In this document: one piece after another, positions 1,573 through 22,385 of the stretch
How the letters are laid out: each line of letters opens with the position of its first letter
Position numbering within the stretch: position 1 is the stretch's first letter
Origin: a virus
Lineage: Duplodnaviria > Caudoviricetes
Length of the DNA: 64,000 nt
IMG/VR virus record: IMGVR_UViG_3300037400_003633
Coordinates: 22,560-86,559 of that record
Reading direction: 5' to 3' (one strand)
The notes under the pieces: model-generated
What the model saw: only the letters and a program-made list of their open reading frames with translations
The model's database searches: none
What the model was told of the DNA's origin: nothing
Translations under genes and position numbers: made by a program

Positions 1573-1648
1573 GGTTTCTGTTTTTCTAATAGTCATTTAG
1601 ATTGTAAGTGTTTCGAAATGGGCTGTCTGTGTTAGATAGCCCATTTTT
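1573..1648 (+). ncRNA. candidate antisense-TIR small RNA A with terminator
   Basis: stop -> CAT(1594) -> U-rich tract -> hairpin GGGCTGTCT/AGATAGCCC + TTTTT; reverse complement reads AAACACTTACAATCTAA-ATG-ACT-ATT-AGA. Confidence 0.5.
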
Positions 1649-1782
1649 AGTGAATAAACGTTAAATATTGATATAACCCTGCAAGTTTTCTCAAAAAAGT
1701 TTGGTGGTTTCGATTTTTTTATGTAATTTTGCATCGTGAAACCTGAGGATAGTCCGAGGGTACGCCTTAAAAAATTACAATT

Positions 1783-2874
1783 ATGGCAGCAAACATTGAG
1801 ATTATTAACGGAGTTGCAAGTTTTGCAGAGAACAAGAAGAGTGGTCTGGCATGGCATGGTCTGGGTCAGCAGGTAGAGGGTGCTATGTTCGTCGATGAGG
1901 CTTTGAAAGCCTGTCACGCTGACTATGAGGTACAGTCACGTCCAGTGATGGTATTGACCCCTGAGATTCAGGAGCGCATGATGCGTGGTGAGATTATCAC
2001 TGCCGACGAGTTGATTAACCTGACTATCCCCAACACTATGGCTACTGTACGTACCGACCTGAATCGTTCACTGGGTGTGGTATCTGACAAGTACGGTATC
2101 GTTCAGAATGCTGATGCTTTCCGCTTTGTGGATATGTTCTGTTCAGGTAAGTTCGCTGACAGACAGGACACTCCAGTTATCGAGACCTGTGGTGTACTGG
2201 GTCGTGGTGAGCGTGTATTCGTTACTGCTAAGTTCCCTGAGCCTGTTGTGCTGAACTCACGTCGTGATGACATTGTGGAAATGTACGTGGTATTCACCAC
2301 CAGTCATGACGGTACTGGTTCAGTACGCTGCATGGTTACTCCGATTCGTGTGGTATGCAACAACACACTGAACCTTGCTATGCGTAACAACATTGGTCGC
2401 ATTTGCTTCCGTCACAGCAGCAATGTAATGGATAGACTTGACCTGTTGCAGCAGGAGAACGCTGAGTTTGCTTACAAAGCAATGAACGTGTACGAGGTTT
2501 ACACCAATGGTCTGAAAGAGCAGTTTGACCACCTGCGTAACATCAAGGTCTCTGAAAAGGATTTGGATAACATCCTTGCTGAGGTTCTTCTCTCTCCTGA
2601 GGCTTTCAAGGCTTACAAGACCGACGGCATCAATTCCAGTGAGATTAAGACTCGTGGTCGTAACCTGTTCTTCAACGTCAAGCAGGCTATTGAGACTGGT
2701 ATCGGTCAGGACAATCAGGAGACTGGCACTGCAATGTGGGCAATCAACGGTCTGACTACCTACTATCAGAATCAGGCTAATTTCAGCAACGACGAGATTA
2801 AGTTTGACTCTCTGATGCAGGGCAATGCCTACAACAAGATTCAGAAGGCTCAGGAGTTGCTAATGGCAGTCTAA
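1783..2874 (+). CDS. DUF932 / phage-plasmid TIGR03299-like protein
   Basis: AWHGLG N-terminal motif, ETCGVLGRGERVF, TPIRVVCNNTL, W.AINGLT motifs. Confidence 0.8.
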   Translation: MAANIEIINGVASFAENKKSGLAWHGLGQQVEGAMFVDEALKACHADYEVQSRPVMVLTPEIQERMMRGEIITADELINLTIPNTMATVRTDLNRSLGVVSDKYGIVQNADAFRFVDMFCSGKFADRQDTPVIETCGVLGRGERVFVTAKFPEPVVLNSRRDDIVEMYVVFTTSHDGTGSVRCMVTPIRVVCNNTLNLAMRNNIGRICFRHSSNVMDRLDLLQQENAEFAYKAMNVYEVYTNGLKEQFDHLRNIKVSEKDLDNILAEVLLSPEAFKAYKTDGINSSEIKTRGRNLFFNVKQAIETGIGQDNQETGTAMWAINGLTTYYQNQANFSNDEIKFDSLMQGNAYNKIQKAQELLMAV

Positions 2875-2886
2875 ACCACTACAGGA

Positions 2887-2917
2887 AAGCCCTACCTGAC
2901 TTGGGTAGGGTTTTTCC
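2887..2917 (+). terminator. intrinsic terminator
   Basis: AAAGCCCTACC-TGACTTG-GGTAGGG-TTTTT. Confidence 0.75.
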
Positions 2918-2952
2918 TTTCACTCTAATAATAATATAACACCATATAAACT

Positions 2953-3336
2953 ATGAGTAAGACAAAGAAGAAATATAAGGTCAGGATATATATTACTGAC
3001 AATGTGCGTGGCAATATGGTTAATTCATTCCTGAGATTGGGCGTTTTACGCCTCCAGAACTCATTTGATGGTAAGAATGGTATATTAGCCATCTACGACG
3101 TTATTTGCCCAGCACAGGCGATTCTAGAGTTAAATACGCTGGGTATTAAGTATTTCCCACTGGATAACTATTCTGATTTTGTTATCGCCTGCCCTAACTG
3201 TGGCGAAAGAATTGATGATGATATGATACTTACTATATATGATGAGAATCTGTTATCAGGTTATAACATTAATTGCCAGCGCCAGGACTGTGGTACACAA
3301 ATGGCACAGGTAGTGTTCACGCCAGCAGATTTGTAA
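2953..3336 (+). CDS. hypothetical protein with C-terminal Zn-ribbon (CPNC...CxxxxC)
   Basis: ORF track; cysteine pairs. Confidence 0.7.
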   Translation: MSKTKKKYKVRIYITDNVRGNMVNSFLRLGVLRLQNSFDGKNGILAIYDVICPAQAILELNTLGIKYFPLDNYSDFVIACPNCGERIDDDMILTIYDENLLSGYNINCQRQDCGTQMAQVVFTPADL

Positions 3337-3455
3337 AGAAACACGAAAAGTTTATATAAGGTGATAAGTTTTTCACGAAAAAATTTGGTAGATTAGATTT
3401 TTTTGTGTAATTTTGCACCGTCAAACATTTAATAACAACTTAAATAATTATAGTT

Positions 3456-4292
3456 ATGGAAAAATTTGTTTATGGTCACGAGTTGAAGAACATGGGTATT
3501 TCTTACTTAGGTAGTGTAGCCCAGTCCATGAAGATGCGTTTGTCTTACGAGAATGGCACAATGACGTATTGCCTTTATCTCGCACCTGCCGATATGTCAG
3601 GTTACAATGTATGTCCTAACAGTGAGCACTGCAAGCAGTTCTGCCTGAATGGTAGCGGTCAGAATAAGTGCGACCAGTTGAGCCGAGGTGTGGAGGGTAG
3701 CCTTATAAACCGTTCACGTATCAAGAAAACCCGTAAGTTCTACGAGGACAGAGATACTTTCATGCGTATGCTTATTCATGAGTTGAGACGTTATCAAAAG
3801 GCTGCAAAGGAAAAGGGCATGGAATTTTCGGTACGTCTTAATGGTACGTCTGATTTGTCACCAGTTCTTTTCAAAGACCCCGACACTGGTAAGAATATCT
3901 TGGAATTGTTCTCTGATGTTCAGTTCTACGACTATACCAAAGTCCCCTCACGTATCAAGTTGATGCAGCGTTATTCTAACTACGACCTTACGCTGTCTTA
4001 CAATGGTTACAATTGGGATGACTGCGAAAAGTTCCTGAATGCAGGTGGCAAGGTTGCAGTTGTATTCTTTAGTGAGAAACTGCCTAAGAGTTTTCATGGC
4101 TATCCTATCACTGACGGTAACGGTTACGATATGCGTTATCTTGACCCTGCAAAGCATATCATTGGCTTGCACTATCATAAGACTGCCAATGACTACTATG
4201 TTGACGAAAAGGACGGTAGGAGAAAGTTTAGAGTGCCTGAAACTCCCTTTGTAGTCAAGGTAAACAACGAATTTGTGGACTGGGTTTTCTAA
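3456..4292 (+). CDS. Gp88-like phage protein (Cys cluster)
   Basis: YLAPA..NVCP...C...CL, FSVRLNGTSDL, FYDYTK motifs. Confidence 0.65.
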   Translation: MEKFVYGHELKNMGISYLGSVAQSMKMRLSYENGTMTYCLYLAPADMSGYNVCPNSEHCKQFCLNGSGQNKCDQLSRGVEGSLINRSRIKKTRKFYEDRDTFMRMLIHELRRYQKAAKEKGMEFSVRLNGTSDLSPVLFKDPDTGKNILELFSDVQFYDYTKVPSRIKLMQRYSNYDLTLSYNGYNWDDCEKFLNAGGKVAVVFFSEKLPKSFHGYPITDGNGYDMRYLDPAKHIIGLHYHKTANDYYVDEKDGRRKFRVPETPFVVKVNNEFVDWVF

Positions 4293-4379
4293 CCCTTTCC
4301 ACAAAAAAGTTGAGAAAAAGTTTGGATATTCCAGTTTTTTTTCCTAACTTTGCAACGTCAAACAAAAACAATAAGAGTT

Positions 4380-4805
4380 ATGGATAAGAAGAATTTCTAT
4401 GGCGACATTAAGACCTTGCACAAGCAGGTTGTTGCCGAGATTAAGGCTTTAATGGTTGAGCATGGCAAGGCAGTTGTTGACCTTGCAGGTAGCCAAGCCC
4501 CTCACGCTTTTATCATTGGCGTTCCAGATTTTGACTGGGATATGGACTACATTGAGGCAGAAGTCCTGAGTGTTATCTTGGAGGATGATAAGATTAAGTT
4601 AGACATCAACTGGGGTATTGACAGCGAGGACTACCTTGAAGAAAATCCCAATGATAACGATGACATCAGTGATTTGTATTCAGTGGTTGAGGCTAACGAC
4701 TTTGAGAAACTTGTTCCTTGCGCAGGAATCAGTAATGTGTACGAATCTGTTTGGGAATATCTTACCTGCGGTTACAAAGGTGATAACGACGAAAATTTAA
4801 AGTGA
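4380..4805 (+). CDS. hypothetical acidic protein
   Basis: start corrected to ATG 4380; the TTG start of the track lies inside the promoter. Confidence 0.8.
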   Translation: MDKKNFYGDIKTLHKQVVAEIKALMVEHGKAVVDLAGSQAPHAFIIGVPDFDWDMDYIEAEVLSVILEDDKIKLDINWGIDSEDYLEENPNDNDDISDLYSVVEANDFEKLVPCAGISNVYESVWEYLTCGYKGDNDENLK

Positions 4806-4806
4806 T

Positions 4807-4992
4807 ATGGCAAATTTCAATGTAAGTGTTGACATGACATTATGTAAGATGGTGTCAGTCGAAGCGGAGAATGAACAGGAGGCTATGGATAAGGTAAACG
4901 AAATGATTGCCAACAATCCATACCAGTACACTAACAATTACAGCCACTATGTGACCCACAGCGTGGTTGATGCAGAACCAGATAACGATTAA
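4807..4992 (+). CDS. DpnD/PcfM-like small protein
   Basis: F.VSV..TL...VSVEAENEQEAMDKV pattern. Confidence 0.55.
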   Translation: MANFNVSVDMTLCKMVSVEAENEQEAMDKVNEMIANNPYQYTNNYSHYVTHSVVDAEPDND

Positions 4993-4995
4993 TGT

Positions 4996-5382
4996 ATGAG
5001 ACGTTTTAGTATATTCGCAATGGTAGTCCTGCTGTTGACGCTCTCTATAGCCTCTTATGGGCTGTCACAGGACGTTGAAAAGGTGAAGCCCTCACAACTG
5101 CAAGGGAAGTATATAACAGACGATTCTGAGGCGTTTTACACGTTTACTGGTGACAGCCTCTATATCGATTGCGCTGGAAGTGGTTGCGGCATCCATGCCT
5201 ATAGTCTAAGATACACCAGAAATGATTTCAGTGAGTGTGACTTGGAAGAAACCGTAGTAGACTTAGACACAGGCAAGGAGTCCAAGGAGAGGCATCACTT
5301 TAAGTTCTTAAAGCATGGTGACAGGGTTTATGTTATAGTAGGTCACAGGACGGTAGACGTTATCGAGAAAGTTCTTCCATAA
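4996..5382 (+). CDS. secreted/periplasmic protein
   Basis: N-terminal MRRF + hydrophobic signal peptide. Confidence 0.65.
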   Translation: MRRFSIFAMVVLLLTLSIASYGLSQDVEKVKPSQLQGKYITDDSEAFYTFTGDSLYIDCAGSGCGIHAYSLRYTRNDFSECDLEETVVDLDTGKESKERHHFKFLKHGDRVYVIVGHRTVDVIEKVLP

Positions 5383-5440
5383 CCATATTAAGTTTTTTTA
5401 AGAAATTAGAGTCACGAAAACTTGTGATTCTAATTTTTTT
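5383..5440 (+). ncRNA. candidate antisense-TIR small RNA L (short)
   Basis: CAT(5384) ATTAAGTTTTTTTAAG then hairpin TTAGAGTCAC/GTGATTCTAA + T-run. Confidence 0.3.
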
Positions 5441-5480
5441 TTTATATCTTTGCACCGAATTAATTAAAACATTAAATTAA

Positions 5481-5798
5481 ATGGAACAGGACGAAAGTAA
5501 GATTTTTGAAAAGTTCTACGGCAAAAAGGTTTGTACGGAGAAACTAAATGTAGAGGGCTACAAGAAACCCATCCAGTTTGATATTTATGACGGTTATGCT
5601 GTTTGTCCAAGCTATAAGGGGCACAGGCTTGAAATGACCTACCCACAGATGAAAGCGGTAAAGGACAGCAAGGAGTTTTCAGACGCTATTATGAACTACG
5701 TTAGTGGTATTACCAATGTAGATGAAATAACCGTCCTACACGTCCTGATAGCCTTTGGTACGTTCTATAAGGATGGGGTGGAGATTCCAGCTAAATAA
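5481..5798 (+). CDS. hypothetical protein
   Basis: ORF track; promoter + leader. Confidence 0.8.
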   Translation: MEQDESKIFEKFYGKKVCTEKLNVEGYKKPIQFDIYDGYAVCPSYKGHRLEMTYPQMKAVKDSKEFSDAIMNYVSGITNVDEITVLHVLIAFGTFYKDGVEIPAK

Positions 5799-5832
5799 CG
5801 ACAGAAACAATCTTAAAACACTTACAATTATT

Positions 5833-6006
5833 ATGGCAAGAAAATATACTATCCAACTTAATTATAACGCATCTATCATTGTAGATGTTACTGGTAACGA
5901 TGAGGGTGAAGCATTGGAGAATGCAAGAAACATTGCTGAGGATGCAGACATCAAGGAATTTACTATCGGAGCAGAGAGGGAAAGTCAGATACTCAGGCAG
6001 AGTTAG
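5833..6006 (+). CDS. DpnD/PcfM-like small protein
   Basis: start corrected to ATG 5833; Y.IQL...ASIIVDV.GNDEGEALENA. Confidence 0.55.
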   Translation: MARKYTIQLNYNASIIVDVTGNDEGEALENARNIAEDADIKEFTIGAERESQILRQS

Positions 6007-6076
6007 TTTTTCATAGTTTTTTATTGTTTTATTGTTAGTTATTCAGGGGGTGCATAAAAAGATGCACCCTTTTTTT
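6007..6076 (+). ncRNA. candidate antisense-TIR small RNA B with terminator
   Basis: TTTTT-CAT-AGTTTTTTATTGTTTTATTGTTAGTT then GGGTGCAT/ATGCACCC + T-run. Confidence 0.55.
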
Positions 6077-6155
6077 GTGTTTTTCCATGAAAAAATTTGG
6101 TAGATTCGATTTTTTTATGTAATTTTGCCATGTCAAACAATAAACAATAAGAGTT

Positions 6156-6500
6156 ATGAAGAAAGAAACGTATTTTAAAAAGGCTGACGAACTTTACGAC
6201 AGCATTATTCCTACACAGAAGGAAATTCGTAAGAAGTGTGAGACATTCATCAAGAAATCATTACAGGAACATAATGGTAAGATTGATTTCTCTGATTGCG
6301 ATGGCTCTGTATCAGTAACCTACGATGGTGGCAACCATCCTGAATATGCCAGCAATGCTTTCTCTATGGTTGAGGGTATTAGCCTTGACAAAAATGGAAA
6401 TATCATCTTACAGACAGAGGATTGCTCTGAATATGGTATTGAGAATATCAACTGGGAAGAAGTTTACTGGATTGCCTCATTCATCAAAGAAAATTTCTAA
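6156..6500 (+). CDS. hypothetical protein
   Basis: ORF track; promoter + leader. Confidence 0.8.
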   Translation: MKKETYFKKADELYDSIIPTQKEIRKKCETFIKKSLQEHNGKIDFSDCDGSVSVTYDGGNHPEYASNAFSMVEGISLDKNGNIILQTEDCSEYGIENINWEEVYWIASFIKENF

Positions 6501-6575
6501 AAAAGTTCAGGAAATTTTTGGTTATTCCAAATATTTTATCTAACTTTGCAGTGTAAACAACAAAACAATAGAGTT

Positions 6576-7079
6576 ATGAGTACAAACAGTTGCGTTATCA
6601 TTAAGTTGAGACAAGAGGACATAGGGAAACCTATTAAGTTCGACAAGGCATTATTGCCTGACGGAGTGAAGATTGAAGATTGGGTGCTGAAAGACCCTAA
6701 TACTGGTAATATTTGGCATGATGAGAGTACCAAGGAGAAGTCAAAGACCATTATTCCCACTGGTAAGTATATCGGTATCTATTGTCACTGGGATGGTCAC
6801 AAAAGTAGTGTTGGTAATGCCCTTAAAACAAGGTTCTCTAACTATATTCATGCGCTCAATCTACTTGCAGGTGGTTGGTGCAGTGCAATCAGCAAAGGCA
6901 GCATAAAGCACTATGCCAATAGAAAGGGTGAAAGATGGGGCATTATTCAGCCTGTGTTTGGTGACACACCGCAGGAAATCATGAAGAATATAGACTTTCA
7001 GTATTGTTACCTGCTTGATGAAAAGGGTTGGCGTTGCTATGACACTAATTACAAGGCAGTGAGATTCTTGAAGTATTAA
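6576..7079 (+). CDS. phage protein with YCHWDG motif
   Basis: start corrected to ATG 6576; GIYCHWDG motif recurrent in phage hypotheticals. Confidence 0.7.
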   Translation: MSTNSCVIIKLRQEDIGKPIKFDKALLPDGVKIEDWVLKDPNTGNIWHDESTKEKSKTIIPTGKYIGIYCHWDGHKSSVGNALKTRFSNYIHALNLLAGGWCSAISKGSIKHYANRKGERWGIIQPVFGDTPQEIMKNIDFQYCYLLDEKGWRCYDTNYKAVRFLKY

Positions 7080-7120
7080 TCGGGTTGGGGAGCAATCCCC
7101 ACCCACAAAAATAGAATATT

Positions 7121-7342
7121 ATGGATAGATATACTACATCAACAGGATATGAGGTTTCTGAACGAATGAACGGTCTCGATATATATGACGAAAATGGTGA
7201 TTACATCTGTGAGTTGCACGGTAGAACTCTCGACGAATACAGAAACGAGGAAGAGGCTATCGACGAAGATGCACTTGAAGGTGACATCAAGAACCAACTG
7301 GAAGTAGAGGCGTTTATTGACTACCAGTCAGGTTACTGCTAA
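7121..7342 (+). CDS. hypothetical acidic protein
   Basis: ORF track. Confidence 0.7.
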   Translation: MDRYTTSTGYEVSERMNGLDIYDENGDYICELHGRTLDEYRNEEEAIDEDALEGDIKNQLEVEAFIDYQSGYC

Positions 7343-7427
7343 AAAATACTGGTAAAAACTTGTATATCTCGAAAATTTTATATATCTTTGCCTTGTGAGG
7401 TAATTATATATTAAAATCAAAGATATT

Positions 7428-7553
7428 ATGAGTGGAAACAAAAGACTAATGCGTAGTGTAGAACACCTGAGAGTGATTGCTACGCCAACGAGAGTGCGAG
7501 AGAATGAGGACGGCACAAAGGCCCAACTCTATCGAATAAACCCGATGAGGTGA
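7428..7553 (+). CDS. 41-aa small ORF (MSGNKRLMRSVEHLRVIATP...)
   Basis: translated by hand; ATG after promoter 7359-7390 and A-rich leader; below the ORF-track cutoff. Confidence 0.5.
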   Translation: MSGNKRLMRSVEHLRVIATPTRVRENEDGTKAQLYRINPMR

Positions 7554-7554
7554 C

Positions 7555-7715
7555 GCACTAAAATGCCTGGGGCTATATGACAGGACTGCCGACGTTACGT
7601 CTCCTGAAGCCCTTTAAACTACCCTAACGTGGATTGGGTGTCCACACTAATCAATTAAGGAAATGGAGCGACAAGAACGACCACCGCCCTGATGCAGGGA
7701 TATAGGTTTTAAATG
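7555..7715 (+). ncRNA. putative structured RNA
   Basis: non-coding, GC-richer, nested stems GGGCT/AGCCC, CAGGA/TCCTG, GACG/CGTC, plus GTGGA/TCCAC and CCCTG/CAGGG. Confidence 0.35.
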
Positions 7716-7758
7716 AATATTATAATAAGTTTGCGACATAATAAAAGATAAAAATGTC

Positions 7759-7832
7759 TGGATAGTAGCTCAGTTGGTTAGAGCACTATGGCATTTGCCT
7801 ATGAGTCGCAGGTTCGAGTCCTGCCTGTCCAG
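7759..7832 (+). tRNA. tRNA-like RNA with disrupted anticodon arm (pseudo-tRNA)
   Basis: acceptor TGGATAG/CTGTCCA, D arm GCTC-AGTTGGTTA-GAGC, T arm GCAGG-TTCGAGT-CCTGC; anticodon arm CTATG-GCATTTG-CCTAT does not pair canonically and lacks U33. Confidence 0.75.
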
Positions 7833-7846
7833 CAATGCGTCGTGAT

Positions 7847-7915
7847 GATGCCTGTTTTTCCATAATGAAATTGTTAGGTTGAGGGAAGCGTATCCAGATG
7901 GGTGCGCTTCCATTG
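7847..7915 (+). ncRNA. candidate antisense-TIR small RNA C with terminator
   Basis: GCCTGTTTTTC-CAT-AATGAAATTGTTAGGTTGA then GGAAGCGTATCC/GGGTGCGCTTCC hairpin. Confidence 0.5.
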
Positions 7916-8022
7916 TTTATGTTAAAAATACTATAAGGTTATAAGTTTTTCTCGAAAAAATTTGGTAGATTCGATTTTTTTATCTAATTTTGCCACGTCA
8001 AACAATAAAAACAATAAGAGTT

Positions 8023-8445: not shown

Positions 8446-8449
8446 GACT

Positions 8450-9790: not shown

Positions 9791-9839
9791 AAATTGACTG
9801 TTATGTTCTATCTCTTTCTTATATTAAGTTTTGTGGTAA

Positions 9840-9868
9840 TGGTTGTGGATGAGTATGTCCACAACCCC
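9840..9868 (+). terminator. hairpin GGTTGTGGA/TCCACAACC
   Basis: inverted repeat downstream of stop 9790. Confidence 0.55.
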
Positions 9869-9976
9869 CAATTCAGGAAGAAAATAAAAAACATTAAAGA
9901 ATAATCGCTGAAAAATTTGGATATTCCAAAAAAAATATGTATCTTTGCACTGTCAAACAATTAAACAATAATAACA

Positions 9977-10744: not shown

Positions 10745-10824
10745 TATCATATTGTAAGATTCGTGATTTGTGTTTTTCATGGTAGTGCCATTCCAGTCAG
10801 TGATGATAGGGGTGGCTTTTTTTT
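10745..10824 (+). ncRNA. candidate antisense-TIR small RNA D with terminator
   Basis: TAT-CAT-ATTGTAAGATTCGTGATTTGTGTTTTT then GCCATTCC..GTGA..GGGGTGGC + T-run. Confidence 0.45.
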
Positions 10825-12710: not shown

Positions 12711-12785
12711 TTCTTCCATATCTTAAAGTTTAGTTGTTGACAGGAGGACTGGGTAATGCATAACACCTAGTCTTCCATCTTTTTT
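12711..12785 (+). ncRNA. candidate antisense-TIR small RNA E with terminator
   Basis: TTCTTC-CAT-ATCTTAAAGTTTAGTTGTTGA then GGAGGACT..AGTCTTCC hairpin + T-run. Confidence 0.55.
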
Positions 12786-15523: not shown

Positions 15524-15544
15524 AAACATCAAAAGAATTGAAAT

Positions 15545-16045: not shown

Positions 16046-16123
16046 AAAAAGTTGGGGAAATATTTGGTTATTCCAGATATTTTCCCTAACTTTGCATCGT
16101 CAAACAATTAAAACAATAAGATT

Positions 16124-16351
16124 ATGGCAAGTCAGATAACTAAAAGGATTAAGATTGGCACAAAGGTGACAGCACGTCTATTTGGCGGTAGAATGGTCAC
16201 TGGAGTTGTTGATAGCATCGAGAAGTGCAAGATTGGTGAGAAGTATGGTACACCAGTATCGAGTGCCCCATTTGGTGCAGGTAACTACACATTTGGACTG
16301 GATTGTGGTAATTGGTGTTATGGAGACCAAATAAGGACAATTGTTAATTAA
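16124..16351 (+). CDS. small SH3/KOW-like protein
   Basis: IKIGTKVTARLFGGRMVTGVVDSI beta-barrel pattern. Confidence 0.6.
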   Translation: MASQITKRIKIGTKVTARLFGGRMVTGVVDSIEKCKIGEKYGTPVSSAPFGAGNYTFGLDCGNWCYGDQIRTIVN

Positions 16352-16361
16352 AAGTATAACT

Positions 16362-16562
16362 ATGGGTAAGCAGAGAATGAAAGTGTATAAGGATAAGGAG
16401 TTCAGAGACCTCCTTACATCAAATGGGTATCGGTTGAACAGAAGTTCTGGAGACCACCACATTTACGTCAATGCGACTGGAAGACATGTCTCAGTTAAGT
16501 TCCCAGTGAACCCATGTATTGCGAGAAGACTAATAAAGGAATATAACTTAATAACAACTTAA
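16362..16562 (+). CDS. hicA: HicA-like mRNA interferase
   Basis: KEFRDLL..NGYRL.RSSGDHHIY.N..GRHVSV...NP.IARRLIKE: HicA pattern with the G-x-H motif. Confidence 0.65.
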   Translation: MGKQRMKVYKDKEFRDLLTSNGYRLNRSSGDHHIYVNATGRHVSVKFPVNPCIARRLIKEYNLITT

Positions 16563-16564
16563 AT

Positions 16565-16804
16565 ATGGATAAGGCAAAGTTAACCCAGTTACGGGCACAA
16601 GTGAACAGGCTGTTCAGAGGCAGACCAGAGGGAAGTGTAATACAGTTAATGCTGGACGGTAAGGAATATAGTCATTATGAGATTCCTGAGAATCATTACG
16701 TCACTAGAGACAGCAAACCACCTATAGACTGGTTGAATGAGGCTGTATGCTTCGCAGAACTAAGAGGCATTAAAGGAAATTTCAGCCTCAGGATAAAACC
16801 CTGA
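16565..16804 (+). CDS. hypothetical protein
   Basis: ORF track. Confidence 0.7.
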   Translation: MDKAKLTQLRAQVNRLFRGRPEGSVIQLMLDGKEYSHYEIPENHYVTRDSKPPIDWLNEAVCFAELRGIKGNFSLRIKP

Positions 16805-16813
16805 GAAGACCAT

Positions 16814-16924
16814 AAGGGAGAAAGAGCATGTTGGCGTTGCCAGTGGTGTTCCCACTAAAGAACCCAGCAAGATTCAGGTAGCTCCTGATGCGCTGGAAAG
16901 TAGGTTCGAATCCTTGCTCCCTTT
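16814..16924 (+). ncRNA. tRNA-like RNA of about 110 nt with a very large variable arm and non-canonical anticodon loop
   Basis: acceptor AAGGGAG/CTCCCTT, T loop AGG-TTCGAAT-CCT, D-like GCA-TGTTGGCGT-TGC, stem AGTGG-TGTTC-CCACT, extra arm CCAGC/GCTGG enclosing TCAGG/CCTGA. Confidence 0.6.
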
Positions 16925-16926
16925 CA

Positions 16927-17002
16927 AGCGATTTCAATTCTTCTGATTTATTCATTTTGCATTTACCCAGTGGCTGTCGGGAGACACCTGCTGGGCTTTT
17001 TT
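16927..17002 (+). ncRNA. candidate antisense small RNA F with GNRA terminator
   Basis: reverse complement AAATGCAAA-ATG-AAT-AAA-TCA-GAA-GAA-TTG; hairpin CCCAG..GGGA..CTGGG + T-run. Confidence 0.35.
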
Positions 17003-17081
17003 ATTAAAAATCATTAAAAAGTTTTGTAGTCTGAAATAAAATACCTAACTTTGCCACGTCAAACGATAAAACATTAGGATT

Positions 17082-17309
17082 ATGGATATGACAATTGAAG
17101 AAGTAAGGAACAGCCTCATTGATGGTTTGGAGGATTGCTATACTCCAACTCAGATTGAGTTAATAGACCTTCGTTTAGAAGAGATTGCAAAGGAAGAACA
17201 CCTTACACTTGAAGACCTTGATTACTATTGCACAGCAAATTCAAGTGAGATGTTTACTTGTATTTTTAACTATAAGGAGTTTGATAAGAAGAACTTTGAA
17301 GTAGATTAG
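17082..17309 (+). CDS. hypothetical acidic protein
   Basis: ORF track; promoter + leader. Confidence 0.75.
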   Translation: MDMTIEEVRNSLIDGLEDCYTPTQIELIDLRLEEIAKEEHLTLEDLDYYCTANSSEMFTCIFNYKEFDKKNFEVD

Positions 17310-17325
17310 ACTTAAATAAGTACAA
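17309..17325 (+). promoter_or_regulatory. GACTTAAATAAGTACAA motif, copy 2
   Basis: exact 17-mer; TATGAT at 17331. Confidence 0.7.
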
Positions 17326-17346
17326 AGTCGTATGATTTAAAAAGAA

Positions 17347-17784
17347 ATGTATATGGAAGCGTATATAGACAAGTATAACAAGGCACTGGGTGAGTTCAGG
17401 AACGCAAAGCACGCAATGATGAATGAGATTGTCACTATGATAAAGACAATCGCCTGCAAACCCATACACATAGGTAACACGTATTATTATTACGTTAATC
17501 ATAATGGCGTGGATGTACCTGCGTATTGCAATGAGAATGACTATAATGAGAGCAATCCTGAGTTCCTGCCAGTATATGATGAGGAGGAAACCTATGACTT
17601 TGGTTGGGTAAGATTCGAGGAATGCTGTCGATTATTCGAGGTCATCAGGAGAGTGTTAATGAATAGCGATACTACAAAAGAAATGGCTGAACGTTATAAA
17701 CAATATACGCAAGGTTGGGCATATATACCACCTCAAGACCTTGGCAAATACGAGAAAGCGTTTAAGCAGTTTTATAATAAATAA
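17347..17784 (+). CDS. hypothetical protein
   Basis: ORF track. Confidence 0.8.
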   Translation: MYMEAYIDKYNKALGEFRNAKHAMMNEIVTMIKTIACKPIHIGNTYYYYVNHNGVDVPAYCNENDYNESNPEFLPVYDEEETYDFGWVRFEECCRLFEVIRRVLMNSDTTKEMAERYKQYTQGWAYIPPQDLGKYEKAFKQFYNK

Positions 17785-17798
17785 TCAATATAAGATAT

Positions 17799-18008
17799 AT
17801 GGATGTAAGGATTAAATTCGACGCTGACCTGATTATTTCAGGTGAGACAATGCAAGAAGTCAGGAGTAAGTTCGAGAGCATGCAACTGTTCTCACAGGAG
17901 GCAAAGGATTCTGGCGTAGAGTTCAGCGAGATACAACTGGTTGAGGATTCTGAGACCTACGACGATTTGAGGCACGAGTATGACCACTGTTATGACAGGA
18001 ACGAGTGA
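17799..18008 (+). CDS. hypothetical acidic protein
   Basis: ORF track. Confidence 0.7.
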   Translation: MDVRIKFDADLIISGETMQEVRSKFESMQLFSQEAKDSGVEFSEIQLVEDSETYDDLRHEYDHCYDRNE

Positions 18009-18100
18009 TTGTTAATAAACAATAAAAAACTGGGCAGTTTCTTTTCTGTTCCAGTTTTTTTCTGTAATTTTGCCACGTCAAACTTAAATAACAAACAGAT

Positions 18101-18523
18101 ATGGAAGCAAATGTAACAGGATTTATCAGGAAATGGAACGGTAGAACATTACAGGATGACGGCAGTAGTGTTTCGAAAGAGTTTCATTCATTTCAGGTGG
18201 CGTTCATTAACGCCATGCGTAAGATTGCCACTGCGTTAGGTGGTGAAGTTGTAGGACAGTCCTATGGTCACTACGATATGAGTGGATTCATCAGGAGAGG
18301 CGACAAGTATGTGTATTTCAGTTACAGTAATGGCTGTTGTCGTGGTGGAAGAACATTCGTAAACCTGAAAGGACAGTGGGATGACTGGCATTCGCCATTA
18401 CTTATCAGAACAGCAGCAGACAGCAAGGATTTTCGTGGAGGCTGTAATCATTTTACATCATTCGAGAAGTGTCAAGAACTGATAGACAGCCTACTAAATA
18501 CAGAACATCGTAGAGTATGGTAA
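18101..18523 (+). CDS. hypothetical protein
   Basis: ORF track; -7 box + leader. Confidence 0.8.
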   Translation: MEANVTGFIRKWNGRTLQDDGSSVSKEFHSFQVAFINAMRKIATALGGEVVGQSYGHYDMSGFIRRGDKYVYFSYSNGCCRGGRTFVNLKGQWDDWHSPLLIRTAADSKDFRGGCNHFTSFEKCQELIDSLLNTEHRRVW

Positions 18524-18651
18524 TAACATTAAAATAATAAAAGCTATGAGAAAAGTATTGTATTAAAAATCATTAAAAGATGAGACTATCTCTTGGTAGT
18601 CTCAATTTTTTTATGTAATTTTGCAGCGTCAAACAACAAACAATTAAGGTT

Positions 18652-19377
18652 ATGGATAAGAACAAAGAGAGTTTAATCAAGGCGATTGCCAAGGCTATCA
18701 AGGAGAGTGCTAAGGGAATCAATGGCAATGTTTATTGCTATGCCAACGTTCCCATTGAACTGCGGAATTGGGGTGCAGGATGGGGCAACAAGTGGAAGTG
18801 GTCATCTTCCGAGATTAAGGTGGGTAACGAAACCTACAAGTTCACTGACAAGGAAGTAACTGACCAAGAAATGATTAGCATTGCAAAGCAGGCTTTGGAG
18901 TTAAGTGGCTGCAAGGGCAAGGTTCTCTATGATGAATGTGGCGATGGCTATTGGATTTCCAAGACCTATAGTTTCAATGGCATCAAGGTATATGGTGAAC
19001 CCTGCAATGAGTTCAAGGAACTGAATAAGATGCTTGCCAAGTATGGTAATAAGACAATAGGTGAGCAGGATGTGTTCCACGTCAATGTGTGTGGCAAACG
19101 TTCATCTTGGAGTGATAGCGGTCACGAAAGTTATCTATGCTATATGCCTAAGGTTTGTGCCAATATCATTGACTATATTAGGCACAATAGACTAAGAGGT
19201 TGGAAAGTGTGCATCAGCATGGAAGAGTATTTCAGTCATGGTGACGAAATGGACTATCGCTGCGCACAACACCAAGAAAGCGAATGGTACGGATGCAGGG
19301 GTGTGATGTTGGTGACTGACATCAAGAACACCAAGGGTGAACCAAAACTGCATAAGACCTTTATGGATTTCAGTTGA
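18652..19377 (+). CDS. hypothetical protein
   Basis: ORF track; promoter + leader. Confidence 0.8.
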   Translation: MDKNKESLIKAIAKAIKESAKGINGNVYCYANVPIELRNWGAGWGNKWKWSSSEIKVGNETYKFTDKEVTDQEMISIAKQALELSGCKGKVLYDECGDGYWISKTYSFNGIKVYGEPCNEFKELNKMLAKYGNKTIGEQDVFHVNVCGKRSSWSDSGHESYLCYMPKVCANIIDYIRHNRLRGWKVCISMEEYFSHGDEMDYRCAQHQESEWYGCRGVMLVTDIKNTKGEPKLHKTFMDFS

Positions 19378-19455
19378 GTTTTCTTTCTAAACCATAATGA
19401 TAATTTTAAATGATGTTAAAGTTTGGGGTAGTCTTTTGGCTATCCCGACTTTTTT
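19378..19455 (+). ncRNA. candidate antisense-TIR small RNA G with terminator
   Basis: AAAC-CAT-AATGATAATTTTAAATGATGTTAAAGT then TTGGGGTAGTC/GGCTATCCCGA hairpin + T-run. Confidence 0.55.
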
Positions 19456-19485
19456 GTGTAATTTTGCTACCGAATTAAAACATTA

Positions 19486-19779
19486 ATGGTTATGGATAAG
19501 AAAAATACGTTTTACATTGTGGTTGTGTTCTATGACGGACTTGGCTACACATTGCAGGAGGATGAAAAGGTACACCTATTCTTCCACTACGGGATAAAAG
19601 GCTACAAAAAGTTAGCCTACGCTATCAAGAAAGCAAATAGACTGGCTTATACCTACGTCAATGAAAAGACCTGCATATTCAAGGTAGAAGAAGATGAGAG
19701 AGTTTCCTGTGACCAATATCGTGACTGGTGCAAGGATAAGAATAGACTGGTTTATGAAAATAAAGGATTTAAGTTATGA
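19486..19779 (+). CDS. hypothetical protein
   Basis: ORF track. Confidence 0.75.
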   Translation: MVMDKKNTFYIVVVFYDGLGYTLQEDEKVHLFFHYGIKGYKKLAYAIKKANRLAYTYVNEKTCIFKVEEDERVSCDQYRDWCKDKNRLVYENKGFKL

Positions 19780-20033
19780 TAGCAATTAATGATTTCAAGT
19801 TAGTGGCTGATTTTAATGACTGGTCACAAACTCACGACCCAGACAAACTCTATTGTATTACAAAGGAGAATGGAGAGGAATTGTTTGATGTGTACGAAGA
19901 TGATTTCATTACTATGATTGACCTTGGTATCGTCAATAGCGAGGGATTTTATTACCTGCTTGGTAATCCTACTGATGACCAAATTAGGGAGTATGCAAAG
20001 ATGTATGGTATTCACTGGACTGATTTAGACTAA
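19776..20033 (+). CDS. hypothetical protein
   Basis: ORF track; ATGA overlap. Confidence 0.75.
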   Translation: MIAINDFKLVADFNDWSQTHDPDKLYCITKENGEELFDVYEDDFITMIDLGIVNSEGFYYLLGNPTDDQIREYAKMYGIHWTDLD

Positions 20034-20037
20034 GATT

Positions 20038-20265
20038 ATGAAAAGGAGAAAGATAGTAAGGCGAAAGAACATCTATGATGTTGACTGGTGGAGAGGTGAC
20101 TGGTGTTATCGTACAACCACTGGCTGCGACTGGGAAGCAGTACTGGAGTGCAAACGTGCTGCGAAGTTAATGGGTGAGAAAATAACCTATGAGAAGACTG
20201 GAGTAAAGGAAGATGTGTACTATACTGGAGGACGAGGTGGTTCACCAATATTTATGGCACGTTAA
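20038..20265 (+). CDS. hypothetical protein (ACTGG-rich gene)
   Basis: ORF track. Confidence 0.7.
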   Translation: MKRRKIVRRKNIYDVDWWRGDWCYRTTTGCDWEAVLECKRAAKLMGEKITYEKTGVKEDVYYTGGRGGSPIFMAR

Positions 20266-20294
20266 AATATTAACAATTAAAATGCAAATGAATT

Positions 20295-20591
20295 ATGGAA
20301 ATTAGAAGAATGAAACGAGAGCAAATTAGAAGGAAACTGTCAGCACTATTGATGCACACTGACGAGCAGCATCCAATGGAATGTCGGTATGTGGTAGGAG
20401 ACGCTTATTCTTGTGGTTTAAGCACGCTGGAAATGCCTACTATCACCAGTATGTTTCAAGAGCCATCAGAGGGCATTATTTGGTTTCAGTTTGAAGGTGA
20501 ACAAGAGCCAAGAGAGTTTGACGATATGGTTAGGTCAGACCTTAATGAACTACTGGAAGGATTAAAAGAAGATATGTTATTAACAATTTAA
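20295..20591 (+). CDS. hypothetical protein
   Basis: ORF track; leader AATGCAAATGAATTATG shared with the next gene. Confidence 0.75.
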   Translation: MEIRRMKREQIRRKLSALLMHTDEQHPMECRYVVGDAYSCGLSTLEMPTITSMFQEPSEGIIWFQFEGEQEPREFDDMVRSDLNELLEGLKEDMLLTI

Positions 20592-20603
20592 TGCAAATGA
20601 ATT

Positions 20604-21005
20604 ATGATTGAAGGAAGTATTGGACTGGGAGATTTCCTTAGAGGAGAAAACTCTATCAGTTGTGAGATTGGTTGTGTTACTGGTATGCGACAAAGCACTG
20701 GTTCACGGAAGGGTATGATTTACAAGATTGGTATTAACTGGTTCTTCGCTGACGAGATTAGCCACGACTGGTGGGGAGAACTACAACACAAGGTAGGTGT
20801 AGGCAAACGATACAACTACAAAAAGCCTATTAAGGTTATATACAAGAAAAGAACCTATAAGGCTATAAGAGTTGAGTTTGAGGAAAACTACCACGTTATA
20901 CTGGAAGATAAGGACGGTGCATTAGTCTATGAACACATTTATTCCTTACCAACAAAGACATTAGAACGGCTGGTTAACCAATATGATAAAGAACAAATTA
21001 AATAA
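20604..21005 (+). CDS. hypothetical protein
   Basis: ORF track. Confidence 0.75.
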   Translation: MIEGSIGLGDFLRGENSISCEIGCVTGMRQSTGSRKGMIYKIGINWFFADEISHDWWGELQHKVGVGKRYNYKKPIKVIYKKRTYKAIRVEFEENYHVILEDKDGALVYEHIYSLPTKTLERLVNQYDKEQIK

Positions 21006-21012
21006 AATAACT

Positions 21013-21363
21013 ATGAATAAAAAAGAATTGAAAGCACATCTTATCATTATGATAGGTGAGTTAAAAGGGGAGATTGATAACGAGTCAGGTTGCTTTGATG
21101 AGATTGCAACATCAGCACTAAAGAACGTATTAGGCTGCAATGAACTGGTTGATACTGATAGCAATGACATACTGGTACAACTGGATAAAAGTATTGAGGA
21201 CGATGGGCTACTGGTTGATGCAGTATTTTTGTCCAGTAATAACAAGGTGTTATTTAGCGTTACTGATGCAGAAGATGAAATGATTGATAGTGCTGAACTT
21301 GCTGACATATCAAGAGAGAACATCATAAAATTATTAGATGAAATATATAAAATGTGTGAATAA
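21013..21363 (+). CDS. hypothetical acidic protein
   Basis: start corrected to ATG 21013. Confidence 0.75.
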   Translation: MNKKELKAHLIIMIGELKGEIDNESGCFDEIATSALKNVLGCNELVDTDSNDILVQLDKSIEDDGLLVDAVFLSSNNKVLFSVTDAEDEMIDSAELADISRENIIKLLDEIYKMCE

Positions 21364-21445
21364 AACAAAAATAATTGGGATATTATTTGGGTATTACATT
21401 TTTTCTTTGTAACTTTGCAACGTCAAACAATTAAAATTAGAAGAT

Positions 21446-21700
21446 ATGATTAACGCAGAACAAGCAAAGCAGTACACTAAGAAGTTCGAACCAAGTAAGG
21501 AGTTGGTAGAACAAGTAGAAAAACAAATCAAGAGAGGTGAGCGTCACATTCACGTCTACACTACTCGCTATTGTCGTGATTATGCAGAGGACTTTGCAAA
21601 GTATTGCAGGGAGCAGGGTTTCACCAATGCACGTATTGAGGACATCTACAACCGCAGAACGGGTGAAAGAGGTGGCAATTATCTTGCTATTGACCTTTAA
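21446..21700 (+). CDS. hypothetical protein
   Basis: ORF track; promoter + leader. Confidence 0.8.
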   Translation: MINAEQAKQYTKKFEPSKELVEQVEKQIKRGERHIHVYTTRYCRDYAEDFAKYCREQGFTNARIEDIYNRRTGERGGNYLAIDL

Positions 21701-21768
21701 GACTACAATGCCCACTATCAAGGTGGTGGTGGGCATTTAACAACTAACAATTAAACATTAGAAGAATT

Positions 21769-22278
21769 ATGGTAAACAAAGACAAAGTAAGGCAGATTTT
21801 CAGTATTGAACTATTGGAGGACAATGCCCAATATTTCAATCATTATACTGATATGATTAAGTGCGGTCATCCCTGGAACGTTGTGTGCGAGTTAAGAAAG
21901 GTCAGCGAAAACGCAGAGTCAGACCTTGACCCTTACACCTATGAGCAGATACTGGAGAGTGCCAAACAATTTAATGAGCGTATCGTATTCGACAATGGTG
22001 AATACTTGCTGACTGCCAATGACGCTATCATAGTCCTTTACCAGTATGGTGATGTGGACGTATACGACTGGACTGGAGATAAACTGGAAATAAACGATGA
22101 AGTTATATGGCTCGACCCCGATGATGATGCAAGAGATTTACGCAGGGTGTGGACTATCTATGATATAGTTAACGAAGAACTGGTTAAGATTGCTGACGAT
22201 GCATCAGAAGCAGAGGTTGCACCAAATGAACTGGTTAAAGCCAGTAACGTGCTACACGTTGACATCATAATCAAATAG
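21769..22278 (+). CDS. hypothetical protein, C-terminal SH3-like segment
   Basis: ORF track; LEINDEVIW...WTIYDI...VKI pattern. Confidence 0.75.
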   Translation: MVNKDKVRQIFSIELLEDNAQYFNHYTDMIKCGHPWNVVCELRKVSENAESDLDPYTYEQILESAKQFNERIVFDNGEYLLTANDAIIVLYQYGDVDVYDWTGDKLEINDEVIWLDPDDDARDLRRVWTIYDIVNEELVKIADDASEAEVAPNELVKASNVLHVDIIIK

Positions 22279-22294
22279 ACTTAAATAAGTACAA
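22278..22294 (+). promoter_or_regulatory. GACTTAAATAAGTACAA motif, copy 3
   Basis: exact 17-mer; TATATG at 22300; directly upstream of candidate sRNA H. Confidence 0.7.
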
Positions 22295-22307
22295 AGTACT
22301 ATATGAA

Positions 22308-22385
22308 CTAGAGCTTTGTCATACTATCAATATTTTAAATGAATAAGTAAACCAGTATTAGTCGTGAGATTGGTACTGGTTTTAT
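22308..22385 (+). ncRNA. candidate antisense-TIR small RNA H with GNRA terminator
   Basis: GCTTTGT-CAT-ACTATCAATATTTTAAATGAATAAGT then AACCAGTATTAGTC-GTGA-GATTGGTACTGGTT + T-run. Confidence 0.6.

Follow-up and report, generated by a model that had tools for sequence, protein, structure and literature searches.

The enterobacterial CpxQ, SroC and leuZ 3′ spacer are small RNAs derived from 3′UTRs or tRNA trailers, which depend on Hfq or ProQ and on RNase E and act on specific host targets. In the phage units described here, the putative regulatory segment likewise shares its terminator with a coding transcript or a tRNA transcript, with the seed just 5′ of the hairpin, while the candidate partners are the phage's own repeated leaders. 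In phage T4, the proteins RegA and RegB shut off early mRNAs, and the starts of genes e and soc are hidden in read-through early transcripts. There as here, a common feature of early starts would allow their joint switch-off or hiding; the hairpins of T4 work in cis, on the gene that follows, whereas this relation, tested here, does not generally hold. P22 sar is a phage antisense RNA against a start region. The c4 antisense RNA of phages P1/P7 belongs to the same strand and operon as its target (in part after PMC8198154). As for c4 and sar, pairing at the ribosome-binding region that blocks translation or expression is predicted for the units from their sequence. However, c4 and sar each serve one immunity operon as its single dedicated regulator, while the units make up a dispersed family, with a many-gene consensus leader as the likely target.

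FopS/GibS of Bacteroides thetaiotaomicron are multicopy sRNAs with a single-stranded seed and a terminator, directed to start regions, and one FopS member is derived from a 3′UTR (PMC11697453). They share the Bacteroidota setting, but are host-encoded with one conserved seed in common, whereas the tracts described here are phage-encoded, mutually different and mostly located in 3′UTRs, each mirroring a whole phage leader. Because such start-region-targeting multicopy sRNAs are known in Bacteroides, along with 3′UTR-derived sRNAs and phage antisense RNAs, the view of the initial annotation that no system of this form has been described needs tempering. The promoter/stem-loop cassettes (PeSLs) of T4-type phages (PMC2839356, PMC4122927) resemble the surroundings of the units, with repeated host-type promoters and terminators flanking small ORFans and with gain and loss at cassette borders. 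PeSLs, however, use sigma-70 −35/−10 promoters and SD sites, and an anti-start element is not described for them; they explain the context, not the units.

Early cassettes and anatomy of the units

The window, which is the whole analysed stretch of 64,000 nucleotides, comes from an IMG/VR phage record of 86.6 kb, and the source is a large rumen phage of the Bacteroidota type. The first ~22 kb of the window contain about 30 cassettes of Bacteroidota type, each a fusion of terminator and promoter, which share an A/C-rich leader (Table 1). They flank small ORFans and repeat the host-type promoter and terminator, and their leaders are the presumed targets of the units. Gene gain and loss are bounded by cassettes, as illustrated by positions 4976–5375, missing in the relative G002, which is 92–98% identical to this phage.

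Table 1. Position and composition of units and related features in the window
Feature	Position	Strand	Composition
Example early cassette	6081..6155	+	A tract, −33 TTTG, −7 TAnnTTTG, conserved A/C-rich leader, ATG
Unit A	1573..1652	+	spacer 1573–1614, terminator 1615–1647; weak member
Unit L	5375..5448	+	consensus-start complement overlapping stop of gene 4996–5382, then left end of next cassette, hairpin 5400–5439
Unit B	6007..6079	+	U/G-rich spacer 6007–6044, complement of consensus early leader and AUG; hairpin 6045–6072, then U tract
Unit C	7834..7922	+	mini-hairpin 7837–7851, anti-start tract 7852–7882, terminator 7884–7911
Unit D	10745..10824	+	spacer 10745–10786, terminator 10787–10816 and U8, upstream of tRNA-Leu
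Unit E	12711..12785	+	spacer 12711–12742, terminator 12743–12776
Unit G	19378..19458	+	spacer 19378–19417, terminator 19418–19452
Unit H	22278..22392	+	promoter-like 16-nt motif 22278–22293, transcript ~80 nt, terminator 22349–22382, no ORF
Ninth unit, new to the list	58585..58656	−	CAT overlapping stop, B-like U-rich tract, hairpin 58617–58591, U tract
U/G-rich stop-to-terminator spacer	9791..9870	+	without CAT

All eight units proposed by the initial annotation, A to E, G, H and L, lie at the coordinates given there. In each of them, a spacer that is mostly unpaired in the centroid fold is followed by a hairpin and a U tail, and the terminator hairpins, described there as a constant feature, are indeed stable (z −2.3 to −5.7 against shuffles) and associated with a U tract in every case. 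The distance from the unit start to the first CAT is 21 nt in A, 1 in L, 5 in B, 14 in C, 3 in D, 6 in E, 15 in G and 12 in H. GNRA loops, reported as frequent, are limited to D and H. Reading of the sequences also disclosed a short box adjoining the hairpin, common to several units. Units were said to follow a stop codon or a tRNA-like end, which has to be amended for H, preceded by a promoter-like motif, and for C, located 27 nt after tRNA-Lys. The group is mixed. Besides 3′UTRs it includes a tRNA trailer and a promoter cassette's left end, and one stand-alone unit runs from promoter to terminator.

Unit B is the 3′UTR of a conserved 57-aa gene (5833–6006), and a 2-nt indel after the stop excludes coding. 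Unit C is the 3′ trailer of tRNA-Lys (7759–7833). Unit H is a candidate stand-alone small-RNA gene. Its 16-nt motif has five exact copies, and the four outside H are all located upstream of ORFs, with the ATG following 38–51 nt later in three cases. The ninth unit sits behind the minus-strand gene 58652–59290 (p 0.008 against dinucleotide shuffles), so the layout follows the transcript and not the orientation of the genome. Every unit, this one included, has the sense strand of the preceding gene. The spacer without CAT (p 0.02–0.04, dinucleotide shuffles) is a possible degenerate family member. In contigs from rumen RNA libraries, sequence of the upstream gene continues into the L, B and E spacers, although these are assembled contigs and may contain DNA. 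No Rfam family matched the unit tracts at E values up to 0.5.

Likeness to start regions and predicted pairing

The context of the inverted starts, with T at −1 in seven and A at −3 in six of the eight units, was described correctly and matches that of real starts. A matrix built from real starts ranked B 1st, G 2nd, H 5th, L 7th, C 12th, E 14th, D 27th and A 304th among 378 minus-strand ATGs in positions 1–27000; the two scores of L, 13.1 and 9.9, correspond to ranks 3 and 7. Dinucleotide shuffling of their own spacers in seven units, the segment of C having been cut too short there, gave p values of 0.002 for L, 0.003 for G, 0.004 for H, 0.008 for E, 0.024 for B, 0.13 for A and 0.21 for D, and the range across two tests was 0.002–0.005 for L, 0.002–0.003 for G and 0.005–0.008 for E.

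Selection of units by eye was avoided by testing every gene 3′ end followed by 70 nt or more of intergenic sequence, 31 in total, against dinucleotide shuffles. Nine of them reached p < 0.05, compared with 1.55 expected, and four (L, B, E and G) p < 0.01, with a Fisher value of 1.4e-4 for the test; an alternative CAT of unit A, overlapping the stop (1568–1570), scored 8.5 by the matrix, with p 0.025 here. The reversed-sequence control gave a Fisher value of 0.15, while the sense-strand control was likewise significant, so that the latter is not clean and 3′ segments are not neutral sequence. The same test in G001 (~69% nucleotide identity) replicated the signal modestly (Fisher 0.04 only).

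On the sense strand, the unit reverse complements find their best BLAST matches in real starts, and the ATG is in register. When duplex energies with 57 real starts were compared with those of shuffled units, mean z values were −4.4 for B, −3.1 for C and −6.7 for E. Among the top 12 sites over 27 kb, those covering an ATG number eight for B, nine for E and five for C, where one or two are expected, an enrichment of predicted sites at start codons; for D it is only one. The spacer of E mirrors the whole 5′UTR, from about the transcription start to codon 3, and its best duplex (−28.1 kcal/mol) is with the start at 9977. A 14-nt leader motif in unit G recurs in the leaders of helicase and sigma factor, and the unit's best partners, the starts at 8772, 24715 (sigma) and 23066 (helicase), were equalled by none of 60 shuffles. 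Unit H pairs with the helicase start region at −24.2 kcal/mol, a value reached by none of 500 shuffles. Unit A has one notable partner only, at position 5833, where the 57-aa gene starts (−21.8, p about 0.05), and duplex statistics of L against shuffles revealed no significance. Combining these analyses, the proposed likeness of the units to real start regions, in antisense and beyond composition, is partly confirmed: shuffles, duplex energies, start enrichment and conservation support it for B, C, E, G and H, and partly for L, while A and D are individually not supported.

As a partner, the start of the unit's own mRNA ranks only 20–44 among the 57, except in G (rank 5); the leader of the B-bearing operon departs from the consensus. 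With the start of the next gene, B (−21.8 kcal/mol, rank 4) and E (−19.9, rank 11) pair strongly; that start ranks 10–42 for G, A, C, H, D and L. Pairing is not generally aimed at the next gene, nor at the own mRNA. What predicted pairing does match is the consensus leader, in B, C and E, or individual starts, as in H with helicase. The predicted duplexes are rich in A-U and G-U, and we know of no chaperone needed or present for them.

Conservation in related phages

Comparison with G002 shows purifying selection on the unit spacers. Spacers of B, C, D, E and G differ by 3 mismatches in 184 nt (98.4% identity), compared with 92.3% in other intergenic DNA, 90.1% at third codon positions and 89.7% in the units' own hairpins. 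Units B and D are identical in G002 and E has 1 mismatch in 35 nt; no relative of E more distant than G002 was found.

Conservation in more distant relatives is best seen in B and C, which are near-invariant in phages with ~70% gene identity, even though their terminator stems are replaced. Unit B is preserved in G001 and in 9–10 of 12 relatives found by protein alone, with different hairpins, and stays unchanged while the downstream gene and leader vary. The mini-hairpin and tract of C are nearly invariant in eight phages, in which the upstream tRNA(-like) gene and the terminator vary. A short motif of L is kept in 9 of 12 relatives despite differing upstream genes. Exceptions are unit A, absent from G001, and the B locus in its three remotest relatives, where the CAT is missing.

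Leaders of G001 carry an SD-like GGAG box, and two G001 units carry the matching CTCC complement. At the position orthologous to D in G001, L018 and L021, the sequence is a clear complement of the phage's own SD-like leader. Units B and C are invariant even where phage leaders have a different flavour, which fits a conserved partner and equally a protein-binding or other role. Compensatory covariation between unit and target could be tested in a single case. In L037 and L038, motif, short stretch, hairpin and motif are likewise found upstream of helicase, with a sequence different from H, and cognate pairing with the helicase start is weak (−12.3, p 0.06, in the L037 test).

Alternative explanations and proposed function

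The units could be functional 3′UTR elements of another kind, such as an RNA-binding-protein site, a stability or processing determinant or a termination aid, whose likeness to starts comes from inverted-leader descent or common sequence preferences and not from pairing. Strong primary-sequence conservation of B and C whatever the leader flavour, conservation of D which is not a start image, the hairpin-adjoining box and the failure to find target covariation in the H counterpart all agree with this explanation. We nevertheless consider it unlikely, as it leaves unexplained the in-register ATG and whole-5′UTR coverage, the start-codon enrichment of predicted sites, and the CTCC complements in the phage with GGAG leaders. 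Quite unlikely is a cis insulator on the model of T4 e and soc, in which the tract of a read-through transcript folds onto the next gene's start and translation proceeds only from own-promoter transcripts. The next-start ranks of B and E, the inverted repeat (I24) formed by B with the next leader, and kinetics favouring intramolecular pairing speak for it, whereas the ranks of the remaining six units, the invariance of B next to changing genes and leaders, and the poor fit of C, H and the tRNA trailer speak against.

Neutral relics of cassette shuffling, or chance, would imply inverted gene starts left beside palindromic terminators in a T-rich context and picked by eye. Start-like A-rich sites are indeed frequent in this AT-rich genome (28 pseudo-starts of at least 11 bits per 86.6 kb), A and D fail the tests, the units were chosen after the fact, and cassette-bounded gene gain and loss is real. 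This is very unlikely, however, given the nine 3′ ends that pass the unselected test, spacers better conserved than synonymous sites and their own hairpins, and the persistence of B and C through deep divergence; moreover, simple cassette inversion would leave an inverted −7 box, and no unit retains one. A similarly small probability is assigned to DNA-level sites, with the leader as an operator or recombination site and the units as inverted extra copies bound by the same protein. Leader conservation exceeding what translation alone seems to need and the inverted repeat of B would be accommodated, in conflict with the invariable sense-strand location, with similarity ending at about the transcription start, and with a nearby inverted partner existing for B only. 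Real minus-strand genes or antisense promoters are hardly credible. The start-like context is very good and some true minus-strand genes of G001 have such starts (32601), but the frames close after 2–11 codons and are not conserved; as the initial annotation stated, those of B, G and H stop after 3, 2 and 4 codons, and no TAnnTTTG box was found on the minus strand upstream of units.

The best reading, to which we give close to an even chance, is that of trans-acting anti-leader RNA segments. In this reading, B, C, E, G and H, with L as a probable addition, and the minus-strand unit are sense-strand segments, each with a single-stranded U/G-rich tract directly 5′ of an intrinsic terminator, carried by early-mRNA 3′UTRs (B, E, G, L), a tRNA trailer (C) or an own small transcript (H). 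The tract in each case complements one of the phage's 5′ leaders, over a span that opens near the transcription start and takes in the AUG and the first codon or two. Since translation initiation in Bacteroidia does not depend on Shine-Dalgarno pairing but on leaders that are A-rich and unstructured (PMC6847099, PMC7797042), pairing of the tract over leader and AUG would block it, and the duplex could become exposed to double-strand RNases. The analysis demonstrates anatomy, complementarity beyond composition, purifying selection and orientation in transcript sense, while accumulation of these RNAs, their pairing in vivo and repression as the outcome are what we infer; host mRNAs as targets are pure conjecture.

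As conserved reverse complements of the phage's own start regions, these stop-to-terminator stretches are good, if unproven, candidates for RNA segments that block start codons. Units G and H fit the helicase and sigma-factor starts. Because B, C and E match the leader common to some 30 early cassettes, they would work in trans to damp early-gene translation in general or to shut it off.

The early region and its cassettes

The virus record holding the window is 86,559 nt long, with the window as its bases 22560-86559, and is 29% complete according to CheckV; the phage is therefore large. Between position 1 and about 22000 lies an array of small ORFs, all on the plus strand, interrupted by about 30 copies of one cassette. 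Each cassette is ordered as an A tract, a -33 TTTG, a -7 TAnnTTTG, a conserved A/C-rich leader (hereafter the consensus leader) and ATG, with boxes typical of Bacteroidota housekeeping promoters. Many copies have the preceding gene's terminator hairpin built into the promoter. In the fused cassettes (~30), the -33 TTTG sits in the loop of the hairpin, whose U tract continues into the -7 box.

The array resembles that formed by the PeSL cassettes of T4-type phages (PMC2839356), also in gaining and losing genes at cassette borders. A test of PeSL-like context found about 30 repeated intergenic cassettes of promoter and stem-loop flanking small ORFs, with indels at borders; for example, window 4976-5375 is missing from G002, the close relative. 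Similar in function, the cassettes described here nevertheless form a separate family because of their Bacteroidota-type promoter. In place of gene 4996-5382 (128 aa), the 98%-identical G002 carries about 18 nt (L010 3743-3761), and this cassette-bounded indel ends exactly at unit L.

Relatives of the window are rumen phage contigs. They comprise G002 (92-98% identity, spanning window 1234-20407), the distant G001 (about 69% identity) and some 20 more contigs, including records of 295 and 412 kb. Megablast found no match to window 1-24000 in the deposited phage collection. At the tRNA-Lys position, relatives L021 (3758-3831, plus strand) and L018 (10417-10491, minus strand) have instead a tRNA-like gene with a four-base anticodon (ccaa) according to ARAGORN, G002 has a disrupted version, and no tRNA was detectable in G001. 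ORF 10779-10937, which runs across tRNA-Leu(UAA), is spurious, and one RNA contig is a chimera joining this tRNA to tRNA-Lys. Three tandem ~62-nt units with a hairpin-forming core, possibly iterons or an origin, sit at about 25700-25900 in the 817-nt gap after the sigma-factor region.

Coordinates of units and associated features (window positions unless a relative is named)
Feature	Position	Strand	Remarks
Unit A	1573	+	
Unit L	5383	+	
Unit B	6007	+	
Unit C	7847	+	
Unit D	10745	+	
Unit E	12711	+	
Unit G	19378	+	
Unit H	22308	+	
Ninth unit	directly behind minus-strand gene 58652-59290	-	found in genome-wide scan
16-nt near-palindromic motif	14286, 17309, 22278, 22395, 25520	+	exact copies; 0.01 expected by chance
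Fused terminator/promoter cassettes	1-22000	+	scattered minus-strand copies, e.g. 36594, 51014, 55787, 58531
UvrD-type helicase and sigma factor	downstream of early array		
tRNA-Lys	7759-7833		
tRNA-Leu(UAA)	10864-10965	+	long variable arm; Rfam tRNA, 47.3 bits; missed by ARAGORN
Best minus-strand start-like sites in early region of G001	23691, 15416, 14767, 19130, 21398, 25025 (G001)		stop-to-terminator spacers

Anatomy of the units and their likeness to translation starts

All eight units, each composed of CAT, a U-rich tract and a terminator hairpin, are present where the initial annotation had placed them. Their CAT offsets, the T at -1 in 7/8 and A at -3 in 6/8 of the reverse complements, and the early stops in the reverse-complement frames of B, G and H were all reported correctly. 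GNRA loops, described as frequent, occur only in D and H. The units were also said to follow a stop codon or a tRNA-like end; C does follow tRNA-Lys, and H is preceded by a promoter-like motif instead of a stop codon. Every unit ends in a stable hairpin and U tract (z from -2.3 to -5.7 against shuffles), and structure prediction leaves the tract preceding the hairpin largely unpaired in all of them. The terminator hairpins are kept in relatives, yet differ in sequence. RNAalifold found no consensus in the B family, whose hairpin sequences are not alignable, and these hairpins were therefore assessed individually.

Minus-strand genes are excluded, in agreement with the initial annotation, and a minus-strand promoter or a true cis-antisense RNA was rejected as well: no minus-strand -7 box lies near any unit, and the reverse-complement frames span 2-11 unconserved codons. 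In the ninth unit the CAT overlaps the stop codon, and a U-rich tract resembling that of B leads to a hairpin, after which comes a U tract (p 0.008 against dinucleotide shuffles). Its place on the minus strand behind a minus-strand gene means that the layout goes with the strand that is transcribed, which points to a feature of the transcript.

Start-likeness was scored with a matrix built from 57 real starts (-25 to +6). Sites reaching 12 bits numbered 45 on the plus strand and three on the minus strand, and the latter are units B, G and L. Among 378 minus-strand ATGs in 27 kb, the units ranked 1 (B), 2 (G), 5 (H), 7 (L), 12 (C), 14 (E), 27 (D) and 304 (A). Dinucleotide shuffles of the same spacers gave p 0.002-0.024 for L, G, H, E and B, 0.13 for A and 0.21 for D. 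Because the units had been picked by eye, an unselected test, also with dinucleotide shuffles, was run on all gene 3' ends having 70 nt or more of intergenic space (n=31). It gave p<0.05 at 9/31 ends (1.55 expected) and p<0.01 at 4/31, with a Fisher's combined p of 1.4e-4 versus 0.15 for reversed sequences; the latter were the sole negative control, because the sense-strand control was itself significant. The same test in G001 was marginal (Fisher 0.04).

Duplex energies, tested with mononucleotide shuffles, gave z values against shuffled units of -4.4 (B), -3.1 (C) and -6.7 (E) over all real starts, while G and H each have one outstanding partner. The enrichment of predicted pairing at starts, proposed as a check in the initial annotation, was found in a scan of the 27-kb plus strand: an annotated ATG is covered by 8, 9 and 5 of the best 12 sites for B, E and C, respectively. 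The best sense-strand matches of the units' reverse complements are real starts, with ATG in register. A and D fail the duplex and start-site tests. In summary, an accessible seed complementary to starts beyond chance is carried by B, C, E, G and H, by L according to the matrix test only, and not by A and D. For five or six of the units, then, out of eight, the original observation of start-region images is real.

Predicted partners, conservation and transcription

B, C and E match the consensus leader, and E complements a 5'UTR, beginning near the transcription start and reaching codon 3. The operon carrying B has a non-consensus leader. A 14-nt motif is common to G and the leaders of the helicase and sigma factor. 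For H, the duplex with the helicase start reaches -24.2 kcal/mol, a value attained by 0/500 shuffles. The helicase-upstream layout of H is kept in relatives L037 and L038 with a different sequence; the L037 counterpart pairs only weakly with its own helicase start, at -12.3 kcal/mol (p 0.06), though better than the cross pairs, which reach -8.8 and -9.6.

H is preceded by one of five exact plus-strand copies of a 16-nt motif, which is also present in L037, L038 and G001. Each copy is followed by a TATAT-like box. The other four copies all precede an ORF, three at a distance of 38-51 nt from its ATG. H, which lacks an ORF, is thus a unit running from a promoter-like motif to a terminator. The motif probably serves as a promoter specific to the phage, perhaps one for the sigma factor at 24715-25464, or else as a regulator site.

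Many early leaders of G001 have an SD-like GGAG box 8-14 nt before ATG, where leaders of the window have AAGAG; GGAG occurs in 1/57 of the latter. Such boxes are odd, given that the ribosomes of the hosts are reported to be blind to SD sequences. G001 units 21398 and 25025 contain CTCC, the complement of GGAG, an anecdotal match in leader flavour, and unit 21398 is a near-exact complement of a G001 leader.

Two forms of pairing in cis were rejected by ranks. Occlusion of the next gene's start, as in T4 e/soc, would require specific pairing with it, and among 57 starts the next one ranks 4 (B), 10 (G), 11 (E), 17 (A), 19 (C), 23 (H), 27 (D) and 42 (L). For fold-back onto the start of the same mRNA, of the hok fbi/tac type, the ranks among 57 are 19-44 for own-gene and operon-first starts, apart from G (5) and the operon-first start of L (6).

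An exact B 20-mer occurs in 41 bacterial genome contigs (L039-L079), about the chance expectation for AT-rich genomes. Read in reverse complement, it is a leader with ATG at its end, apparently where a gene starts. About 20/41 contigs derive from Bacteroidota (Prevotella, Alistipes, Pedobacter, Chryseobacterium and others), and a single match (L074) is a mis-binned phage relative. As a start context in Bacteroidota, the phage leader consensus is thus ordinary, and the search of bacterial genomes with this 20-mer disclosed neither a conserved host target nor the host's identity.

Compared with G002, the spacers of B, C, D, E and G show 3 mismatches in 184 nt (98.4% identity), against 92.3% in other intergenic DNA, 90.1% at third codon positions and 89.7% in the units' own hairpins. 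The seed is conserved above its flanks in B and C; E and G were compared with the close relative only, because their upstream proteins have one close relative each in IMG/VR. Unit B sits behind a 57-aa gene that is conserved. G001 was identified independently, by way of another protein; there the B tract is nearly unchanged, while the preceding coding sequence is about 69% identical and the terminator stem entirely different. CAT and the B tract are kept in 9-10 of 12 relatives found by the 57-aa protein alone, and the three most distant have only a T-rich spacer. Coding read-through from the 57-aa gene is excluded by an indel of 2 nt directly behind its stop codon. The mini-hairpin and tract of C are near-invariant in eight phages that vary in the terminator and in the tRNA or tRNA-like gene upstream, and at L a short complement of the consensus start context is found in 9/12 relatives with unrelated upstream genes.

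Parts of the window are held in seventeen rumen or gut metatranscriptome runs, and contigs of four of them cover most early genes (compared over window 1400-21399). At L (4994-5425), B (5512-6037) and E (11870-12770), RNA contigs continue past the upstream gene into the spacer. This fits co-transcription of the units as 3'UTRs, the evidence being assembled contigs that carry neither strand nor transcript ends, with DNA carry-over possible; gaps in their cover are uninformative, and they give no levels. In three RNA runs, belonging to two studies, the summed contig depth is greatest (68, 30 and 13) in bin 5402-6068 (genes 5481-6006 and unit B), although such depths cannot rank genes.

Proposed function and relation to known systems

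The best-supported reading, from the anatomy, statistics, selection and strand logic observed here, is that the units are sense-strand anti-leader RNA segments; that they accumulate, pair in vivo and repress translation, we infer. Initiation of the host type depends on unstructured A-rich leaders (PMC6847099, PMC7797042), and anti-leader segments would be able to cover the leader and AUG of phage mRNAs. B, C and E could act as general repressors of early cassettes, and G and H as more specific ones. More tentatively, and rather doubtfully, rumen jumbo phages of Bacteroidota type may exert a global RNA-based control of early translation. B and C would be deeply conserved 'master' segments in 3'UTRs or a tRNA trailer, with E, G and H lineage-specific; by pairing with the SD-less leader that dozens of early mRNAs share, the segments would shut these mRNAs off, and carrier operons would escape via non-consensus leaders.

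The main rival grants the conserved tracts another RNA-level role, their start-likeness being inherited from inverted copies of leaders. Less weight is given to three further rivals: an insulator acting in cis on transcripts that read through; neutral relics, against which stand spacers that diverge less than third codon positions; and DNA sites, against which stands the layout following the transcribed strand.

Base-pairing RNAs against start regions are known, and the claim that no system of this form has been described was too broad in that respect. It stands for a narrower case: to our knowledge, mirror images of a phage's own leaders, borne in 3'UTRs and forming a dispersed and conserved family, have not been described. 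The systems closest to the units include the FopS/GibS sRNAs of Bacteroides (PMC11697453), 3'UTR-derived and tRNA-trailer sRNAs, and the antisense RNAs c4 (P1/P7) and sar (P22). Rfam covariance models, including FopS/GibS and other sRNA families, gave no gathering-score match to the units, and matches at E up to 0.5 were at chance level only. The proposed early shut-off shares its logic with T4 RegA/RegB, of which it would be an RNA counterpart.

Even if pairing is wrong, B and C are unusually conserved non-coding elements in a widespread jumbo-phage group and need an explanation. If it is real, this would be the first post-transcriptional regulatory network described in Bacteroidota phages, in which the phage exploits the structure-sensitive, SD-independent initiation of its host and one short RNA could silence a whole leader-sharing gene set. 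The signature of stop, start-context complement, U/G tract and terminator could then be searched for in many uncultivated gut and rumen phages, and for the genetics of Bacteroides and Prevotella the segments would provide compact repressors of translation that can be programmed.
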